Source of the DNA: a virus
Virus genome (UHGV): UHGV-0257029
DNA length: 14,896 nucleotides
Direction: 5' to 3' (one strand)
Shown here piece after piece: positions 1,106 to 9,897 of this stretch. A program made the translations under genes and the position numbers. Below the pieces are notes generated by a model. That model was not told where the DNA came from. It saw only the letters and a program-made list of their open reading frames with translations, and did not search any database. Numbering within the stretch: position 1 is the first letter of the stretch; each line of letters begins with the position of its first letter.

Positions 1106-1392
1106 TGCCTTACCTCCATAAGCGCCCTATTAATAAACGCCGTCATTGGATTTGCACATCCCCACCCCGTACCATCTGGATTTCTTTTAATTGGCTCCTT
1201 CTTCACTTTGCGTTTTGCATAAATAACCGTCTTCCACTTACGCTCAACAACACTCAAATGTCCTTGTTTCACCATATGCCTTGCTGCTTGAGCGATTCTG
1301 TTATTTGGTATTCCGGTGATCAGTGCTAATTCATGTGGGGAGAATTGTTCATGAGTTTTCAGATATTCCAGGATGATTTCTTTTCCAGTCAC
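1102..1392 (-). CDS. Small basic protein, 96 aa, possible helix-turn-helix DNA-binding protein
   Basis: ORF immediately downstream of the DnaC-like gene with GTGA overlap (GTG start at 1392). The segment ELALITGIPNNRIAQAARHMVKQG has an HTH-like pattern. Confidence 0.4.
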   Translation of the reverse strand: MTGKEIILEYLKTHEQFSPHELALITGIPNNRIAQAARHMVKQGHLSVVERKWKTVIYAKRKVKKEPIKRNPDGTGWGCANPMTAFINRALMEVRQ

Positions 1393-2234
1393 GATCTGCT
1401 CCTGTAACTATCCCATGTAAACGCAAGAGTGCACCCGCCGCCATCATTCATCCTGTCAATAACACGCTCACCAATGAATGCAGACAGTTCATCTTTGCTC
1501 TGGTTGCTAATCAGGATTGTTGGCTTCATGCGCTCGTAGCGGGTGTTGATGATTTCGAACATGATCATCTTTTCCGCCTCGCTTCCAAACTGCACACCAA
1601 CCTCATCGATAATTAGCAGGTCAGGTTTAGTGAACTGTCGGATCACTTCATCCTCTGTGCGGGTGGAGTTTTTCGACCATGTTGATTTATATTCTCTGGC
1701 AATTTTCAGCGCCGTTGTGAAAATAGCTGAGCTTTGATGTTCCGTAATTGCGTGCCGGGCGATAGCCAGTGCAAGATGATTCTTTCCAGTACCAGGCTTT
1801 CCACACATAACCAGCCCACCGCCTTTCTGTAACCTCTCAGGCCATTTGCTGGCGTATGCCTGACACACCCTGAGCACTCTCTTTGCATCGTCGTTGACTG
1901 GCTCGTAGTTCTGTAGTGTGCAACCCTTGAATCGTTCAGGAATATCAAGATTATTCAACAGAAACTCGACATTGCGCTTACGTGATTCCTCGTCGATTTT
2001 AATCTTCTCTGCCTGTAGCCGAATAAGCTCATCTCTCATGCATTCCGGGCATTCGCTAGGTCTCGAGGCAAACTTAATTGGCCCAGTCGAGTAACGGTTA
2101 CGCTGCTCAAACTCACCATGTTTTTCACAGATGCCAGTGCCAATTTCTACAGATGTATGCTCGATAGCAATTGGCGGAGAACTCAATTCTGCAAGTTTTT
2201 TCTCCAGTTGGGAGATCTTTTCATCCAGCGTCAT
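1389..2234 (-). CDS. DnaC/IstB-like AAA+ helicase-loader replication protein
   Basis: Walker A GKPGTGKNHLA and Walker B LLIIDEVG. Start placed at the ATG at 2234 (MTLDEK...) with RBS aggag 5 nt upstream, just after the upstream stop; the ORF track begins 18 nt earlier at 2252. Confidence 0.75.
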   Translation of the reverse strand: MTLDEKISQLEKKLAELSSPPIAIEHTSVEIGTGICEKHGEFEQRNRYSTGPIKFASRPSECPECMRDELIRLQAEKIKIDEESRKRNVEFLLNNLDIPERFKGCTLQNYEPVNDDAKRVLRVCQAYASKWPERLQKGGGLVMCGKPGTGKNHLALAIARHAITEHQSSAIFTTALKIAREYKSTWSKNSTRTEDEVIRQFTKPDLLIIDEVGVQFGSEAEKMIMFEIINTRYERMKPTILISNQSKDELSAFIGERVIDRMNDGGGCTLAFTWDSYRSRS

Positions 2235-2236
2235 GT

Positions 2237-3124
2237 TCACTCCTGCGCCCATGAAGGCATTTCAGTTTGTCCGTAATCTTTGGTGGCAAAGTTTTCAGCC
2301 TTAAGTCCATTAGCAACCTTGCGTACCGGTCTGGATAACGCCTGCTTGTTCTGGTAGCTGAGTTTCTGGCTGGCAGTGATAAACCAGTTCTTTGGCTTCT
2401 CATGGCTAAATTCGATATCCAGCCTTTCCAGTTCGTAATTCAGGTCAATGTTCGGATACAGGCGCTTCCATGCTTCGTAGTCCTTGTGGTTTAACCGAAC
2501 GATATTTCCTTCGAAGGCATAGCGACTTGAAATTTTATGGACATCAGCCCCACCCCCTTCACAAGTCGCGTCAGCGGCTTGGGTGTTAGAAAGGGAATCA
2601 GGAATCAGGTTAAGGGAATCAGGAATCAGGTTAAGGGAATCAGCAGGATTTAAACTGTTCTCTACTGGTTCTTGCACTGTACTTGCATGGTGCTTTTCTG
2701 GTGCTTCATTGTTTTCAATGAACTGCAGTGATTCTACATCCTCCTTCTCTTCATCTTTATCGTCCTTGCACTGTACTTGCATGGTGCTGTTATTGTTCTC
2801 TACTGGTTCTGGTATCTCACTGGCAGCTTCTTTGCAGTGAGGGTTCTGGTGCTTTTTCCAGTTATTGATTTGGATATATGAGCCGCCATTTACCTGATAT
2901 CGGTTGATGAATTTGTGACTGTGAAGTTGCTGAAGCAGATCATTGCAGTCCACATCATCGAAAGGCAGTACCATTGCTTTAATTTTCTTTGGGCGATCAT
3001 CCAACCGCCCTTCTTTGTCAGCAATGGTCCATAACCCGGCAAAAAGGAGACGGGCATATGGAGAACACTCAGCTAATTCATCATTGGTGAAAAAGCCTGG
3101 TTTGATATTTCTTGAACGTGCCAT
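2237..3124 (-). CDS. Putative replication initiator / replisome organiser (not lambda O)
   Basis: Sits directly upstream of the DnaC-like gene in the lambda O position. Conserved-looking N-terminal domain (MARSRNIKPGFFTNDELAECSPYARLLFAGLWTIADKEGRL), acidic low-complexity linker encoded by DNA repeats, distinct C-terminal domain. ATG at 3124 with RBS aaggtgg. Confidence 0.5.
   Translation of the reverse strand: MARSRNIKPGFFTNDELAECSPYARLLFAGLWTIADKEGRLDDRPKKIKAMVLPFDDVDCNDLLQQLHSHKFINRYQVNGGSYIQINNWKKHQNPHCKEAASEIPEPVENNNSTMQVQCKDDKDEEKEDVESLQFIENNEAPEKHHASTVQEPVENSLNPADSLNLIPDSLNLIPDSLSNTQAADATCEGGGADVHKISSRYAFEGNIVRLNHKDYEAWKRLYPNIDLNYELERLDIEFSHEKPKNWFITASQKLSYQNKQALSRPVRKVANGLKAENFATKDYGQTEMPSWAQE
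2591..2644. repeat. 21-bp tandem repeat, about 2.5 copies (aagggaatcaggaatcaggtt), inside the initiator gene
   Basis: Read directly from the sequence; encodes the repeated peptide DSLNLIP on the minus strand. Confidence 0.85.
2656..2810. repeat. Two pairs of exact direct repeats (24 bp and 17 bp) flanking a moderately AT-rich spacer; iteron-like
   Basis: cttgcactgtacttgcatggtgct occurs at 2671..2694 and 2765..2788. tgttctctactggttct occurs at 2656..2672 and 2794..2810. Confidence 0.8.
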
Positions 3125-3135
3125 TTTGTCCACCT

Positions 3136-3936
3136 TTAGTACGGGAGTTCTTCCTGAGCTTCACGAATGCGTTCAGATACCCACTCCTTGAACGTTGTCC
3201 AGTTAGGTACTGTTTTCGCAAACTCAGTAAGTTCATCGAGATCTAAGTCGTATGAAAGCCATGCCTTGAGATAACTCATTACATGGTTTTGATTGATATA
3301 TATGCGGTTTTTAAGGATTCCTCTGATGTATAGAATCCTTTGTTCTTTTGGCGGTTTTCTTTTTGTCGCTGCTATGCGAGGGATGTACTCAAAGAATTCA
3401 CCAGTAAGCTCATGGGTTATTTCTTGGGTGAGTTTTTTGTCTGCGGCAATCTCAATCGCATCGAGGATTTCTTCAAGCTTATATATTCGAAGCCATCTCT
3501 TGATAGATTTTCGCCCATTGTCATTAACAGTAAATGGCGCAATGCAGTCGTCAATTTTGGTAGCGACAATATCAACAACATCGTCTTTCAGGCTCTTAAG
3601 ACCATCTCGCCACTTGATCATCATCTCCAGTTGCTCTCGCTTGGTATTAAGTTCCTGGAGTTGCTGCCTTTGCTTTTCCATTATTGAGTTATCGCTGAGC
3701 AGTTTGTCGCTTTTCCCGCCATTACAACTATCGCAAGAAGTAATAAGGTTCATCATGTCGTTATCGCCACCCTTGCTAACTGGGTTGATATGGTCGACAT
3801 GAAGGATGACGTCTGGCGCAGAACTCCCACAGTACTGGCATTTGAAGCCATCGCGCTTGAAAACCTCAAACCGTATTTTCTTGGTAATGCCGGAACGAAT
3901 CTTTTTTACTTGGTCTGGTGTAGGTTTTTTTGCCAT
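3136..3936 (-). CDS. HNH endonuclease domain protein
   Basis: HNH motif FKCQYCGSSAPDVILHVDHINPVSKGGDNDMMNLITSCDSCNGGK near the N-terminus. Start placed at the ATG at 3936 (RBS ggag 6 nt upstream) rather than the track start at 3948. Confidence 0.7.
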   Translation of the reverse strand: MAKKPTPDQVKKIRSGITKKIRFEVFKRDGFKCQYCGSSAPDVILHVDHINPVSKGGDNDMMNLITSCDSCNGGKSDKLLSDNSIMEKQRQQLQELNTKREQLEMMIKWRDGLKSLKDDVVDIVATKIDDCIAPFTVNDNGRKSIKRWLRIYKLEEILDAIEIAADKKLTQEITHELTGEFFEYIPRIAATKRKPPKEQRILYIRGILKNRIYINQNHVMSYLKAWLSYDLDLDELTEFAKTVPNWTTFKEWVSERIREAQEELPY

Positions 3937-3957
3937 AATTAACTCCATAGAAAGCAG

Positions 3958-4257
3958 TTAAAAATCCATCTGGATTTGTTCAGAACGCTCGGTCTTGCAC
4001 ACCGGGCGTTTTTTATTGGTGAGTCCATCAAGCGCATACTTAAAAGCCCTGCTAATCGGACTGATGTCTGATGCCATTCCGAAAGCACACAAGACCGAAG
4101 CAATAAACCGCCAGTCCGTTCTGCTTATCTTCGATTCATGACAGCCAATCATCTTTGCCAGACCGCGCTGGGTAAGCGTTGACAGGTTGATGAGTAAATC
4201 TGTTTCTGCGCGATCAATTTCTCGCTGTGTTGGCTTGCTATAACTTGCTTGTGTCAT
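3958..4257 (-). CDS. cII: CII-like transcriptional activator
   Basis: First gene after cro on the pR operon. C-terminal ...LTNKKRP..TERSEQIQMDF closely resembles the lambda CII C-terminus as recalled; N-terminal part diverges. Confidence 0.65.
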   Translation of the reverse strand: MTQASYSKPTQREIDRAETDLLINLSTLTQRGLAKMIGCHESKISRTDWRFIASVLCAFGMASDISPISRAFKYALDGLTNKKRPVCKTERSEQIQMDF

Positions 4258-4294: not shown

Positions 4295-4312
4295 TATGCG
4301 TGGAAACGCATA
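4295..4312 (-). terminator. Palindromic hairpin at the tR1 position between nutR and cII
   Basis: tatgcgt-ggaa-acgcata, 7-bp stem; no strong U-tract, so more likely an attenuator or rho-dependent pause than a strong intrinsic terminator. Confidence 0.3.
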
Positions 4313-4341
4313 TGGCCTTAGTTGGTCAGATATCTTGGGGC

Positions 4342-4356
4342 TCGCTTTGTCAGCGA
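4342..4356 (-). promoter_or_regulatory. Candidate nutR boxB hairpin
   Basis: Minus-strand tcgctgacaaagcga, preceded by ctacg, between cro and cII. Same core cgctgacaaagcg as the element upstream of N. Confidence 0.45.
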
Positions 4357-4394
4357 CGTAGGACGAATGTCCATTGTGAAAATAGCGGTGTTAC

Positions 4395-4595
4395 TTATGC
4401 AGTTGTTTTTTTGTTACTTGGGAAGGGCTTTATTTCTTCCGCATAAACGCTTCCATCAGCGTTTATAGTTAAAAAAATCTTTCGGCCTGCATGAATGGCC
4501 TTGTTAATCGCGCTTTGATATACGCCGAGATCTTTAGCCGTCTTGGTTTGCCCAAAGCGTATTGCATAATCTTTCAGGGTTATGCGTTGTTCCAT
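4395..4595 (-). CDS. cro: Cro repressor
   Basis: 66-aa translation [65 protein letters not shown] matches lambda Cro as recalled. RBS aggag upstream; transcribed from pR. Confidence 0.95.
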
Positions 4596-4614
4596 ACAAC
4601 CTCCTTAGTACAGG

Positions 4615-4690
4615 TAATCATTATCACCGCTAGAGGTATAATAGTCAACACGCACGGTGTTAGATATTTATCCCTTGCGGTGATAGATTT
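4615..4690. promoter_or_regulatory. OR1-OR2-OR3 operators with divergent pR (toward cro) and pRM (toward cI)
   Basis: OR1 4622..4638 tatcaccgctagaggta, OR2 4646..4662 caacacgcacggtgtta, OR3 4669..4685 tatcccttgcggtgata. pR on the minus strand: -35 ttgact (plus 4643..4648), -10 gataat (plus 4620..4625), 17-bp spacer. pRM on the plus strand: -35 tagata 4661..4666, -10 tagatt 4684..4689; cI ATG at 4696 is leaderless. Confidence 0.9.
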
Positions 4691-4692
4691 AA

Positions 4693-5409
<717 letters not shown>

Positions 5410-5479
5410 TGAATGGCTAAATGTCTCCTAATAAAAACAGCAATCATTTGAAATTATTAATAATTATAGAGGCTTAGTC

Positions 5480-6478
5480 TTGGAAATCAGCACGGCGGTT
5501 ATTCATTCCGAAGAAGATGCTTTGCGTTTTGTTGAGATGTACATCGCTGGGCAAGATCTTCCTGATGGAATATCATTTGAAGGGTGGCCTAACTTAACCT
5601 TCCGTCTTACTGGTGACAAATTTCATGGCAGTTTGACTCCTTCTGTCATGAAGGGTTTTGTTGAAATGCAGGCCCAAATAAACCGAGCTTATGCATTGTT
5701 AAAGTACGGAGTTCCTGACCCAAGAAAGCTTTCAAAAGAAGAGAAGGAAGCTATCGAAATTCAGGTGAATGTTGAGAATGGCTCGTCCTTGATAGAAGTT
5801 AATATGGATGGGTTCATGGGTGAGGTTATACAAACTGCGGTGAGTAAAGTGGGCCCTCAAGAGATCGTTATTACAGTTTTAGGGGTCGCTCTTATATGGG
5901 GCGGCGTCGTCCTATTCAAAAAATATCTAGAAGACCGCAAAGAGATTCGCATGGCAGAAGTAAAAAGCGAGTCTGAGCGTGAACACCTTGCGACCATGCG
6001 CTTCATGTCTGAGCAGGAAACAAAACGAAGTGAATTATTGACTCAGATTATTAGCGAAAAACCCAAGCTAGACAACATGGAAAGACTTGCTCATGACGCA
6101 AAAACCGACATAGTTAAATCATTTGTCAAGGCTGATACAGCTCAGATTGATGGCGTTGTATTGGATGCAGATCTATCCAAAACCCTCACTACAAATGCAA
6201 GGCGGAAATCAATGGAGATCCGCCTTGATGGAAATTATCGCATTGAAAAGGTTGACTCCACTGATCCAGAGAGCTTCAAAGTGCAAGTGAGAAATGTTGA
6301 CTCCGATCTAAGAATATCGTGCATAGTACAAGATGTATTTCTCGACGCATCCGAGCATAAAAAAGCTCTTCAGCAAGCTGAGTGGGATAGAAAACCAGTT
6401 CATTTGTCAATCAACGCAAAAGAACTAGATGGTGAAATAAAGTCCGCGATAATACTTTATGTCAAAGAGATAACATAA
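5480..6478 (+). CDS. Unknown 332-aa protein with one central predicted transmembrane helix, in the rexA/rexB position
   Basis: ORF on the cI strand between cI and OL. TTG start at 5480 with RBS agagg 8 nt upstream (alternative ATG at 5537). Hydrophobic segment IVITVLGVALIWGGVVLF near residues 131-148. No resemblance to RexA or RexB as recalled, and no kinase or nuclease motifs seen. Confidence 0.6.
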   Translation: MEISTAVIHSEEDALRFVEMYIAGQDLPDGISFEGWPNLTFRLTGDKFHGSLTPSVMKGFVEMQAQINRAYALLKYGVPDPRKLSKEEKEAIEIQVNVENGSSLIEVNMDGFMGEVIQTAVSKVGPQEIVITVLGVALIWGGVVLFKKYLEDRKEIRMAEVKSESEREHLATMRFMSEQETKRSELLTQIISEKPKLDNMERLAHDAKTDIVKSFVKADTAQIDGVVLDADLSKTLTTNARRKSMEIRLDGNYRIEKVDSTDPESFKVQVRNVDSDLRISCIVQDVFLDASEHKKALQQAEWDRKPVHLSINAKELDGEIKSAIILYVKEIT

Positions 6479-6485
6479 TCCTCAT

Positions 6486-6511
6486 CCCGGCCTCAGCGCC
6501 GGGTTTTCTTT
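6486..6511 (+). terminator. Intrinsic terminator after the cargo gene (tImm-like position)
   Basis: cccggc-ctcagc-gccggg, 6-bp all-GC stem, followed by ttttcttt, starting 8 nt after the stop. Confidence 0.75.
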
Positions 6512-6663
6512 GCCTCACGATCGCCCCACCTAAAAACACATAACCAATTGTATTTGTTGAAAAATAAATAGATACAACTCACTAAACATCGCAATTCTGA
6601 TCTCTCGCCCTCCAAAGCAATACCCCAATTCAAAAAATAAATTCATATAAAAAACATACAGAT

Positions 6664-6726
6664 AACCATCTGCGGTGATGAGTTATCTCTGGCGGTGTTG
6701 ACATGAATACCACTAGCGGTGATACT
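6664..6726 (+). promoter_or_regulatory. OL3-OL2-OL1 operators and pL promoter
   Basis: OL3 6664..6680 aaccatctgcggtgatg, OL2 6684..6700 tatctctggcggtgttg, OL1 6708..6724 taccactagcggtgata. pL -35 ttgaca 6698..6703, -10 gatact 6721..6726, 17-bp spacer. Confidence 0.85.
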
Positions 6727-6794
6727 AAACACATCAGCAGGACGCACTACTCACCAGGGCGGTGAATATACAACGATTCGAATATGAATCTACG

Positions 6795-6809
6795 GCGCTG
6801 ACAAAGCGC
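6795..6809 (+). promoter_or_regulatory. Candidate nutL boxB hairpin
   Basis: gcgctgacaaagcgc (4-bp GC stem, 7-nt loop) about 70 nt downstream of the pL -10, preceded by ctacg. Same core as the candidate nutR. Confidence 0.45.
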
Positions 6810-6937
6810 AATAACCAAAGTGAACTTTGGGGTGAATGCAGAGGCTAACCTTCTCGGCGGAGGCGCTTTGCAATGATTACGCGACCGGAGTTAGTCGCCC
6901 GGCTGTATTCACCACCAAAGTTCATCAGGAGGTCTAT

Positions 6938-7321
6938 ATGACACGCAGAACTCAGTTCAAAGGCAATTCACGTTCTCGTCGTCGTGAGCGTTTAAAGGCA
7001 AAGGCATTAGCTAACGGCGTACTGGCCCGCGAAGAAGCAATAAGTTCAGAAGTATTACACCGCCCTACTCTAAGCAGAGCGCAGATTCAGGCTAAAGGTA
7101 CTCACGAAACGCCTGAGCGCATAGAAGACGCTAAGCCAATTAAGTTCATGGCACAGGACGTGATCTGGCAACAGAAAGAATACAGACGCAATCTGGAGCG
7201 AGCGGCCATTGTGTACGCGAATGAGTTTGGACATAAGCAACCAGAAACTGGTGTATGTCTTCCAGATGTAGCTCTTTACGCAGCAGGATACCGGAAATCA
7301 AAACAACTGACGGCGAGATGA
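6938..7321 (+). CDS. N: N-type antiterminator (non-lambda N; arginine-rich motif)
   Basis: First gene downstream of pL/nutL. ATG at 6938 has a strong RBS aggagg; the 6836 track start would swallow nutL. N-terminal MTRRTQFKGNSRSRRRERLKAKA is an arginine-rich motif. Not the lambda N sequence as recalled; resembles N of Stx-type lambdoid phages from memory. Confidence 0.7.
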   Translation: MTRRTQFKGNSRSRRRERLKAKALANGVLAREEAISSEVLHRPTLSRAQIQAKGTHETPERIEDAKPIKFMAQDVIWQQKEYRRNLERAAIVYANEFGHKQPETGVCLPDVALYAAGYRKSKQLTAR

Positions 7322-7379
7322 CTTGTGTTGGTCGCCAGAAAATGAAATTAGGCAGCAAACCACTTATTTGAGGTGAGAT

Positions 7380-7466
7380 ATGGAAGAAGAATTTGAAGAG
7401 TTCGAAGAGCATCCGCAGGATGTAATGGAACAGTACCAGGACTATCCGTATGACTACGACTATTGA
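7380..7466 (+). CDS. Candidate 28-aa highly acidic micro-ORF
   Basis: ATG at 7380 preceded by gaggtgag. Translation MEEEFEEFEEHPQDVMEQYQDYPYDYDY. Overlaps the ral start by 17 nt. Below the ORF-track cutoff. Confidence 0.2.
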   Translation: MEEEFEEFEEHPQDVMEQYQDYPYDYDY

Positions 7467-8312: not shown

Positions 8313-8993
8313 ATGGGAACTGCGACATTAATACTCGGTGAATCTGGCACCGGAAAATCAACCAGCATGAGAAATATCAATCCAGAGGAAGCAATACTTA
8401 TAAAACCAATAGGCAAGCCGCTACCATTTAAATCAAAAGACTGGCTTGCATGGGATGCCAGAGCAAAAAAAGGAACCGTAGTTACCACTGACAAATGGGA
8501 CGTAATAGTTGCTGCAATTAAGCGTGCTCACGAATACGGAAAAAGAATCGTTATTGTTGATGACTTCCAGTATGTGATGAGCAATGAGTTTATGCGCCGC
8601 TCAGAAGAAAAATCGTTTGATAAATTTACTGAGATAGGCCGCCACGCATGGGAGGTGATTAAGGCTGCACAGGATGCACCTGATGACCTGAGAGTCTATT
8701 TTCTTGCACATACCGAAGAAACCCCTATGGGGCGCGTGAAAATGAAAACTATCGGCAAAATGCTGGACGAGAAAATCACTGTCGAAGGCATGTTTACTAT
8801 AGTTCTTCGCACTCTTACCCGCGATGACCAGTTCTTTTTCACCACGAAAAACAACGGTGCAGACACTGTCAAATCCCCAATGGGAATGTTTGATTCCAAT
8901 GAGATTGATAACGATCTCTCTTTCGTCGATGCCACTGTTTGTGATTACTACGGCATCAATAATGTTCATCAAATTAAGGAAAACGCCGCATGA
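8313..8993 (+). CDS. Sak4-like RecA-fold P-loop ATPase (putative phage recombinase)
   Basis: 226 aa with Walker A GESGTGKS at the N-terminus and Walker B-like IVIVDD. Occupies the bet/exo position of the early-left operon; size and motif layout fit the Sak4 / AAA_24 family from memory. Confidence 0.55.
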   Translation: MGTATLILGESGTGKSTSMRNINPEEAILIKPIGKPLPFKSKDWLAWDARAKKGTVVTTDKWDVIVAAIKRAHEYGKRIVIVDDFQYVMSNEFMRRSEEKSFDKFTEIGRHAWEVIKAAQDAPDDLRVYFLAHTEETPMGRVKMKTIGKMLDEKITVEGMFTIVLRTLTRDDQFFFTTKNNGADTVKSPMGMFDSNEIDNDLSFVDATVCDYYGINNVHQIKENAA

Positions 8994-9577
8994 GCAACGT
9001 GATTTTTACTTATAACGAAGAAGCAGCACTGACCGCAGGGCAAGGTGGTTTTATTAACGAAACTGGCGCCCATATCATTACCATTACTGAAGCAGAACTA
9101 AAGCAATCAGAAAAAGGAGCCAAATTTATTGAGTTTTCTGGAGAATCCGACGACGGCCGTAAAATCCAATATCTTAGCGTCTGTGTTCAGAAAAATGACG
9201 GAACGGAAAACAAATTTGGCGCAAATGTCGTTCACGCCATGATGGGGTGTGCTGGGATTGGACAATTAACGCAGCATATGGCTTCCGCCAGTAAATTTGT
9301 TGCACCTGAATTTCATGGAAAGAAAATCGGGTTAGTGCTCCAGAAAGTATTAACCACAAACAAAAAGACTGGCGCAGACAGCTACCAGATGGAAATACGC
9401 ATCCCGTTTATTGCACAAACAGGTCAAACCCTTAAAGAAAAGGCGGAAGGCAAGCAACCAGAAACTATCGCCAACATGGTTGCCAGCCTCAAAGATAAAG
9501 ACAATCGCTCTAAAAACGTAAGCCATAATCATGCAGATGATTATGGTTACAGCCAGAACGATTACCCTCCTTTCTGA
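8990..9577 (+). CDS. Putative phage ssDNA-binding protein partnering the Sak4-like ATPase
   Basis: 195-aa ORF whose start overlaps the ATPase stop (ATGA). Acidic/aromatic C-terminal tail ...HADDYGYSQNDYPPF is reminiscent of SSB tails. Assignment from gene context and tail only. Confidence 0.35.
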   Translation: MSNVIFTYNEEAALTAGQGGFINETGAHIITITEAELKQSEKGAKFIEFSGESDDGRKIQYLSVCVQKNDGTENKFGANVVHAMMGCAGIGQLTQHMASASKFVAPEFHGKKIGLVLQKVLTTNKKTGADSYQMEIRIPFIAQTGQTLKEKAEGKQPETIANMVASLKDKDNRSKNVSHNHADDYGYSQNDYPPF

Positions 9578-9600
9578 TTATTGAAAATAAGGCTCCCATT

Positions 9601-9897
9601 ATGCCAGCGCCTCTGTATGGTGCGGATGACCCGCGCAATTGCTCCGGTAGCTCCAAGGCGGAGGTGCTGGAAAATATCAAAAACAATTTCGACGCGTTTC
9701 TTGCTCTGACACCAGAAACAAAAGCAGAACGGATGTACCGACGCGATATACAACTCGCGCTAAAACAGGAGAAGGACCGAACAAACGAAACAGCAATGAG
9801 ACCGTTGCGAAAAGCGACAATAGACAAATTCCCTGAATATATCGACCCGCGCCTGCGTAATTACCGCTCACGCTATGGCGCTATCAGTAATGACTGA
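9601..9897 (+). CDS. Hypothetical protein, 98 aa
   Basis: ORF in the co-directional accessory block; no recognisable motif. Confidence 0.45.

Follow-up and report, generated by a model that had tools for sequence, protein, structure and literature searches.

What is the role of the gene that follows the cI repressor in the virus genome UHGV-0257029, at the site where lambda carries rexA and rexB? The interval between cI and N, the textbook home of RexAB and lately of BstA, has been described as a hotspot of mosaic diversity housing these abortive-infection systems (PMC8585504), and variable cargo in this interval is thus already known. In the stretch analyzed here (the window, 14,896 nucleotides at its full length), the interval holds a different cargo: an open reading frame (ORF) of 332 codons whose product is conserved, solitary and non-enzymatic. 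An earlier reading made from the letters of the DNA (the sequence-only reading) had placed this ORF in the rexA/rexB slot as accessory cargo, plausibly a single-protein abortive-infection or superinfection-exclusion determinant. The position of the gene, together with the defense genes found beside its relatives, suggests by analogy an anti-phage role in which a lysogen-expressed protein excludes other phages, to which we assign a probability of about 0.5. As a member of a large family that temperate phages maintain at positions typical of accessory genes, it is a credible candidate for a new anti-phage gene. Its family is uncharacterized and absent from defense catalogs, while the kind of element, a cI-N cargo and likely prophage defense gene, is a known one; literature searches for the protein accession WP_000406300.1 and for the PHROG number found no mention.

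The slot is made up of the following features:

4696..5409, plus strand: cI repressor of lambda/HK97 immunity, assigned from the ORF list and its identity to HK97 and lambda cI.

5410..5479, plus strand: AT-rich spacer (GC 0.27) with the Shine-Dalgarno site AGAGG.

5480..6478, plus strand: the cargo ORF under study, 332 codons with a TTG start, a member of PHROG 6191.

6486..6511, plus strand: Rho-independent terminator equivalent to lambda tImm, which closes the cI-cargo operon at a conserved backbone junction.

6698..6726, plus strand: pL-like promoter TTGACA-17-GATACT within OL, found by promoter scan, at the downstream edge of the slot.

5383..6518, plus strand: mobile module with boundaries set by blastn, running from the final ~27 nt of the repressor gene through spacer and ORF to the end of the terminator region.

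The repressor of the window is identical to HK97 cI in 237/237 residues and to lambda cI in 235 of 237. When positions 4300..7400 were compared with lambda, HK97 and mEp234 by blastn, homology stopped at 5405-5410, the cI stop, and picked up again at 6472-6488. The 332-aa ORF therefore lies between the cI stop and tImm, with boundaries that match those of rexA-rexB in lambda. The interval is filled by rexA-rexB in lambda, by gp49-gp48 in HK97, and by HicA-HicB plus one more ORF in mEp234 and HK106; the window protein has no similarity to HK97 gp48/49 or to the mEp234 cargo. The blastn boundaries and these unrelated cargos in related phages bear out the assignment to the rexA/rexB slot. The sequence-only reading was also right that a strong terminator follows the gene: a 6-bp all-GC stem at 6486..6503 is followed by UUUUCUUU (-12.1 kcal/mol, z = -2.1). 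Its attribution is different, because lambda homology resumes at 6486, the first base past the rexB stop, which makes the hairpin the tImm junction of the backbone and not a terminator imported with the cargo. The annotation of mEp234 carries "similar to lambda PL" at the position homologous to 6698..6726, and PRM/PR at that homologous to the cI region of the window.

cI and the cargo ORF are co-directional and 70 bp apart, as had been noted before; the ORF list and RefSeq agree on this gene, the latter giving it an identical start and length (WP_000406300.1, "hypothetical protein", nine complete E. coli genomes). The AGAGG ribosome-binding site lies 8-12 nt 5' of the TTG start. A scan of the spacer detected neither a terminator-like site between cI and the ORF nor a convincing promoter of the ORF's own. 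The missing terminator and the analogy with rexAB and bstA suggest that the cargo gene would be transcribed in the lysogen, and the position in the cI operon makes pRM/pRE its presumed source. In base composition the spacer stands out (GC 0.271), which agrees with the impression that this region is AT-richer than cI; for the ORF itself the impression is weakly true, since the gap is small (0.420 versus 0.454 for cI, with the remaining genes of the window at 0.42 to 0.48).

The ORF is a moron, a mobile accessory gene: related immunity regions hold other cargo in its place, and it moves independently of its flanks. The term was reportedly defined by Juhala and colleagues in 2000 for a phage accessory gene unit. 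With regard to its own promoter, terminator and composition, the terminator is that of the backbone, the spacer has no convincing promoter and the GC content is 0.42 versus 0.45 for cI. The module at 5383..6518 is 99.9% identical in a prophage of E. coli MS 196-1 whose repressor is of another, S24 type and whose early region is P22-like. A ~100%-identical allele stands behind three repressor types (64 IMG/VR loci and other contigs), which, together with the unrelated cargo of the relatives, confirms the accessory status first proposed from the letters. Over the whole family, the repressor types that precede the gene number at least 11, all mutually under 80% identical. Repressor-linked homologs occur in a Pasteurellaceae prophage (47% identity), a lambdoid contig (42%), Acinetobacter (34%) and Moraxella phage Mcat17 (33%); the Acinetobacter copy is among the contexts from a narrow-pattern profile search of genome contigs, which yielded six loci. 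The window allele is present in 9/5,426 complete E. coli genomes, and 609 contigs, those of E. coli and Klebsiella pneumoniae among them, carry the exact protein sequence. With a second allele described below, the two checked alleles reach ~1.7% of complete E. coli genomes, besides many Klebsiella, Salmonella and Enterobacter contigs. Among 50,697 phage records, megablast found no match, and tblastn matched only Mcat17 and Pasteurella phage Pmp14.

The protein belongs to phrog_6191 (function unknown in PHROGs; E 1.1e-137), its residues 4-331 aligning with positions 6-334 of the 338 in the profile. Scans with Pfam, NCBIfam and PADLOC models assigned it to no significant family, and a search against PADLOC-DB v2 returned zero matches at E<=1. 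The sole Pfam match, aRib, was rejected (17.9 bits versus a cut-off of 27). The same scans of 46 aligned homologs gave scattered single matches and no consistent family, and no PDB sequence was recovered by profile search (best E 0.38). No catalytic family appeared in the Pfam, NCBIfam and PADLOC scans, in line with the sequence-only reading, which had seen no catalytic motif. A word-indexed search retrieved 122 homologs, none of them named, from Enterobacterales, Pasteurellaceae, Pseudomonas, Oceanospirillaceae and Caballeronia. An exhaustive profile search found 1,545 representatives (50% identity) at E<=1e-3, 598 of them at E<=1e-30; the best 150 representatives are nearly all 320-350 aa long and match over their full length. 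By these sequences, PHROG 6191 is a large family of fixed architecture.

Two alleles allow the constraint on the protein to be gauged. On IMG/VR contigs (L014/L015), a version with 98.8% protein identity follows a short non-S24 CI-type repressor (155 aa) and differs from the window allele at ~28% of synonymous sites. The comparison gives dS 0.35, dN 0.006 and dN/dS 0.019, a ratio that implies strong purifying selection and an unusually tight constraint on the protein. Among the aligned homologs, conservation is even over all domains. Among the invariant or near-invariant residues are W36-P37, T53-P54, Q64, G101-S102-S103, L150, R153, E180-T181-x-R183, R241, G251-x-Y253, E301-W302-x-R304 and N312-A313.

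An AlphaFold2 model built from the 46-sequence alignment (mean pLDDT 87.1, pTM 0.69), taken with hydropathy, divides the protein into four parts:

5480..5842, plus strand: alpha/beta domain at the N-terminus, spanning residues 1-121 at a net charge of about -8 and carrying the conserved motifs GWP, TPxVMKG, Q64 and GSS.

5861..5917, plus strand: hydrophobic helix EIVITVLGVALIWGGVVLF, residues 128-146, predicted as a single transmembrane (TM) span from its hydropathy and conserved position.

5921..6130, plus strand: helical stalk, residues 148-217, with model helices at 143-160, 164-171, 178-193 and 195-217.

6131..6475, plus strand: C-terminal beta domain, residues 218-332, with a core at about 245-330 that forms an OB fold.

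Residues 128-146 are the most hydrophobic 19-mer of the window protein, with a Kyte-Doolittle (KD) value of 2.33 where the usual threshold is 1.6, and lie between ~127 preceding and 185 following residues. The segment is the hydropathy maximum at the same position in 45/46 homologs (mean KD 1.79, minimum 1.15), its length of ~19-21 residues is also conserved, and the earlier layout of one TM helix between about 130 N-terminal and about 185 C-terminal residues is thereby upheld. The model places it in a long helix (126-160, pLDDT about 90), with a conserved small-xxx-small motif (A136/G140-G141) that precedes the K/R-rich flank KKYLEDRKEIR. Averaged over the homologs, the C-terminal flank carries 4.2 Lys or Arg residues and the N-terminal flank 1.6. 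The window protein has no signal peptide and no lipobox, and its N-terminus is acidic. These sequence properties indicate that the protein probably crosses the inner membrane once. From the positive-inside rule, given the K/R asymmetry and the acidic N-domain, a periplasmic N-terminal domain and a cytoplasmic stalk and OB domain are predicted.

The N-terminal alpha/beta domain has no structural relative. In the C-terminal domain, a beta-hairpin and a short helix (218-244) lead into a small five-stranded beta-barrel (245-330), which superposes on solved OB domains; among its best matches are SilF and the B subunits of AB5 toxins, ligand binders that are periplasmic or secreted. What had been described as a charged C-terminal domain does span ~185 residues past the helix, but in the model it resolves into a helical stalk and an OB-fold beta-barrel. 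A conserved set of basic and aromatic residues (NARRKS at 239-244, Y253 and E301-W302-x-R304) is found at the OB domain, and around the modeled barrel they are of a kind that would fit an anionic ligand, nucleic acid for example. Foldseek against viral models returned three full-length analogs at E about 1e-5 with low TM-scores (0.26-0.31): one from Leptospira phage LE1, one labeled "DUF6575" and a third protein. At such scores the helix and OB elements could by themselves account for the likeness, which does not establish homology. DUF6575 is a domain of one experimentally validated E. coli defense system (PMC9519451). Since neither the window protein nor any of the 46 homologs matches Pfam DUF6575 or any PD-T4, PD-T7 or PD-Lambda model, the likeness is a lead only.

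The family occupies several kinds of genomic site. A second, more frequent slot is represented by ~45 viral loci in which a ~60%-identical paralog stands alone near the lysis cassette, with antiterminator Q (PF06530) and DUF968 on one side and a holin, or a DNA methyltransferase and a holin, on the other. The same arrangement is found in a Salmonella contig, Pectobacterium, Rahnella and Entomohabitans. Copies in this Q-holin slot lie on the strand opposite to all their neighbors, and promoter scans 5' of them gave scores no better than those of shuffled sequence. The Q-slot allele is present in 86/5,426 complete E. coli genomes, where every copy is annotated as a hypothetical protein. In Mu-like prophages of Pseudomonas aeruginosa and one further host, the gene ends a short operon divergent from the transposase genes, right before the holin. 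A copy in a P2-like prophage adjoins gpU and gpD, and a few copies look chromosomal or adjoin an insertion sequence.

Family copies often lie directly in the repressor operon, and repeatedly beside defense or toxin genes. For instance, a Pasteurellaceae prophage (L082, 5367-8029) has the order cI, a 283-aa KilA-N protein, the family member and a strong terminator, the KilA-N neighbor being the PADLOC candidate PDC-S22 (E 2e-124). In Acinetobacter sp. BY419 (L090, 5357-10070), four cargo genes follow cI, encoding in this order an HSDR_N protein of 390 aa, a product of 100 aa, the family protein and a diguanylate cyclase (GAF-GGDEF), and in Vreelandella titanicae the family member follows Fic/Doc. 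Another example is Pasteurella phage Pmp14, in which a complete type VI retron (HTH_VI E 2e-32, RT_VI E 2e-88) immediately precedes the copy. An Rfam scan of this locus detected no curated retron noncoding RNA, only a tRNA and a sub-threshold sRNA match, and the retron call therefore rests on the two protein models. In the phage record itself (L003, OR544131.1; 3668-4922), the retron genes are annotated merely as "transcriptional regulator" and "polymerase". What looks like a small defense island in Oceanospirillaceae (L074/L075, 5591-13805) places the copy beside a 1,646-aa Type IIG/ISP restriction-modification enzyme and a GmrSD fragment, flanked also by a 331-340-aa ORF and a protein with an AHH nuclease domain, among the integrative-element genes YagK/YfjJ, DUF932 and YqaJ. 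The 331-aa ORF upstream of this copy was considered as a paralog and rejected. No partner gene is conserved in any of ~90 loci, which argues that the family protein acts alone.

Taken together, a mechanism may be proposed in which the cargo gene is transcribed with the repressor and its protein, by itself, protects the lysogen from other phages. The OB domain, with its conserved Arg, Lys, Tyr and Trp residues, would bind a phage-derived ligand near the membrane, most likely nucleic acid or nucleoprotein. The TM helix and stalk might then block genome entry or establishment, as in superinfection exclusion, or might oligomerize and compromise the membrane, as in abortive infection; the latter would make the protein a one-protein functional counterpart of RexA, a DNA binder, and RexB, a membrane component. 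Either specific mechanism is rated lower than the anti-phage role as a whole. A broader proposal, which we regard as tentative and rather doubtful, is that PHROG 6191 is a widespread "one-protein Rex" in lambdoid, Mu-like and P2-like phages of Gammaproteobacteria and Betaproteobacteria: the OB domain would detect phage nucleic acid, whether incoming or replicating, at the membrane, and the TM helix and stalk would oligomerize and either block genome establishment or depolarize the cell.

Several observations count against an anti-phage membrane protein of this kind. None of the 46 members matches a validated PADLOC defense model, and the matches obtained are weak ones to the candidate PDC-S42, made by two distant members (E 1e-4 and 0.012) and colinear along the TM helix and stalk; no family member has a described function. 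Genomic neighbors are weak evidence in a prophage, given the many kinds of cargo that gather there. Many exclusion proteins have fast-evolving specificity domains, whereas here, as far as these sequences go, conservation is even and selection strongly purifying. Some copies lie in late operons, co-directional with structural or lysis genes, which does not suggest lysogen-specific expression. In Mu-like prophages of Salinicola rhizosphaerae and Vreelandella maris (L089, L091; 7316-10693), the copy is inserted into the head-morphogenesis operon, with the gene for G-like virion morphogenesis (PF05069) on one side and that for the Mu I protease on the other, and points the same way as both, an odd place for a gene expressed in the lysogen. 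The helix is marginal in some homologs (KD 1.15-1.5), and the insertion free energy of the window protein, simply summed on the Hessa biological scale, is about +0.5. The predicted N-out topology would also require a domain of 125 residues to be exported with no signal peptide, which is unusual.

The last two points lead to a different view of the helix, in which it is the buried core of a soluble oligomer and the protein is a cytoplasmic OB-fold nucleic-acid binder. This question is independent of that of function, as such a protein could serve defense or regulation. The segment is rich in Gly and Ala and in some homologs includes Lys or Asn, the pTM of 0.69 for the full-length model suggests a defined inter-domain arrangement, and the N-terminal domain that would have to be exported holds 11 Lys or Arg residues. 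A soluble protein is nevertheless quite improbable, given a hydrophobic maximum retained in 45 of the 46 homologs with a mean above the usual threshold, the conserved position and length of the segment and the strongly asymmetric K/R flank that is typical of membrane anchors. If the protein is indeed anchored, it may still have nothing to do with defense: as a lysogenic-conversion factor it would alter the host envelope or physiology (stress tolerance, adhesion or signaling) for the benefit of the lysogen. The same moron slots hold non-defense cargo, the Acinetobacter copy adjoins the diguanylate cyclase, the periplasmic and secreted ligand binders among the OB-fold matches point the same way, and broad conservation with uniform constraint on all domains would fit a conserved host component as the partner. 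We consider this unlikely, because the protein has an acidic N-terminus with neither signal peptide nor lipobox, the OB domain should be cytoplasmic by the positive-inside rule, and the neighbors are mostly defense or toxin genes and not virulence genes.

The gene might instead serve the phage's own life cycle by tuning the lysis-lysogeny switch or lysis timing, or by tethering phage DNA to the membrane. Of the natural occupants of the slot, RexA binds DNA and is reported to bias the switch of lambda (PMC11077077), and the OB fold, with its conserved basic and aromatic residues, could bind DNA as well. Lambdoid copies abut the lysis cassette, and Mu-like copies lie just upstream of holin/SLT and co-directional with it, or inside the head operon. 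Such a role has a slim chance in view of how dispensable and rare the gene is (9 and 86 of the E. coli genomes for the two alleles), how readily unrelated cargo substitutes for it in near-identical immunity regions, and how it moves among unrelated phage types and slots; the Q-holin copies also oppose the lysis genes in strand. A narrower lysis-related role, as a spanin or antiholin, was considered for the proximity to holins and one weak Rz match, and was ranked low because the window copy and many others reside in immunity regions distant from the lysis genes, which the Q-slot copies oppose in strand. The anti-phage role of a presumably lysogen-expressed cargo gene remains the favored reading.

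Elsewhere in the window, three regions are of separate interest. At 3136..3948 (minus strand), where lambda O is expected, a 270-aa ORF encodes an HNH-type motif (CQYCG...HVDHINP...CNGGK); it has cII (3958..4257) on one side and, on the other, the replication genes at 2237..3133 and 1389..2252, the latter for a DnaC/IstB-like Walker ATPase. The early-left operon at 8313..9897 (plus strand) encodes an ATP-binding protein (8313..8993), a 195-aa ORF (8990..9577) and a 98-aa ORF, whose RefSeq equivalents in MS 196-1 are an ATP-binding protein, a hypothetical protein and a phage anti-RecBCD protein; this operon differs from the exo/bet/gam recombination module of lambda. At 6836..7321 (plus strand), the listed 161-aa ORF extends the N antiterminator upstream. 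It is probably an ORF-calling artefact, since the 127-aa homologs of HK97 and mEp234 start at the internal ATG 6938 (MTRRTQFKGN...).

Among known systems, the CBASS effector Cap15, which disrupts membranes, pairs TM helices with a beta-barrel. The window protein resembles it in architectural logic, a membrane anchor plus a small ligand-binding beta-barrel with no enzyme domain. It differs in having no cyclase or other signal-generating partner in the ~90 loci and in its order of N-terminal domain, TM helix, stalk and OB domain, and neither the window protein nor its homologs gave a PADLOC sequence match to Cap15. Inner-membrane superinfection-exclusion (Sie) proteins such as P22 SieA, T4 Imm and HK97 gp15 are likewise non-enzymatic, phage- or prophage-encoded and active alone at the membrane. 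T4 Imm and HK97 gp15 are small proteins of this type. The Sie proteins have no homology to the window protein, which is much larger and has two folded soluble domains and an OB fold; their distribution is narrow, whereas PHROG 6191 spans many phage types and bacterial orders. SieA is characterized as a small prophage-encoded membrane exclusion protein that acts alone (PMC10461980). A parallel in genomic habit is offered by BstA of Salmonella prophage BTP1 and by PDC-S22, which are also single-gene, terminator-closed prophage cargo downstream of diverse repressors in many Gram-negatives (PMC8585504). Unlike these two, the window protein and its 46 homologs have no match to KilA-N. PDC-S22 and the family member stand side by side in the Pasteurellaceae prophage, which indicates that they are distinct and possibly complementary.

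RexA and RexB share with the cargo gene the site between the cI stop and tImm, the orientation and the presumed co-transcription with the repressor. RexB has several TM helices where one is predicted here, the OB fold is unrelated to RexA, and a single ORF stands in place of a two-gene system. BLASTP found nothing against RexA and 20% identity over 74 aa against RexB (E 0.02 in a five-sequence search), in keeping with the lack of resemblance noted from the letters. The window protein may also unite a membrane element and a possible nucleic-acid-binding element in the way that RexB and RexA do together (DNA binding by RexA: PMC11077077). If the family is not anti-phage, it would mark a conserved temperate-phage function with an unexplained N-terminal fold. 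If it is, it would constitute a compact one-gene system common in clinical Enterobacteriaceae prophages, and would be simpler than RexAB as a model of infection arrest by a membrane-tethered sensor.

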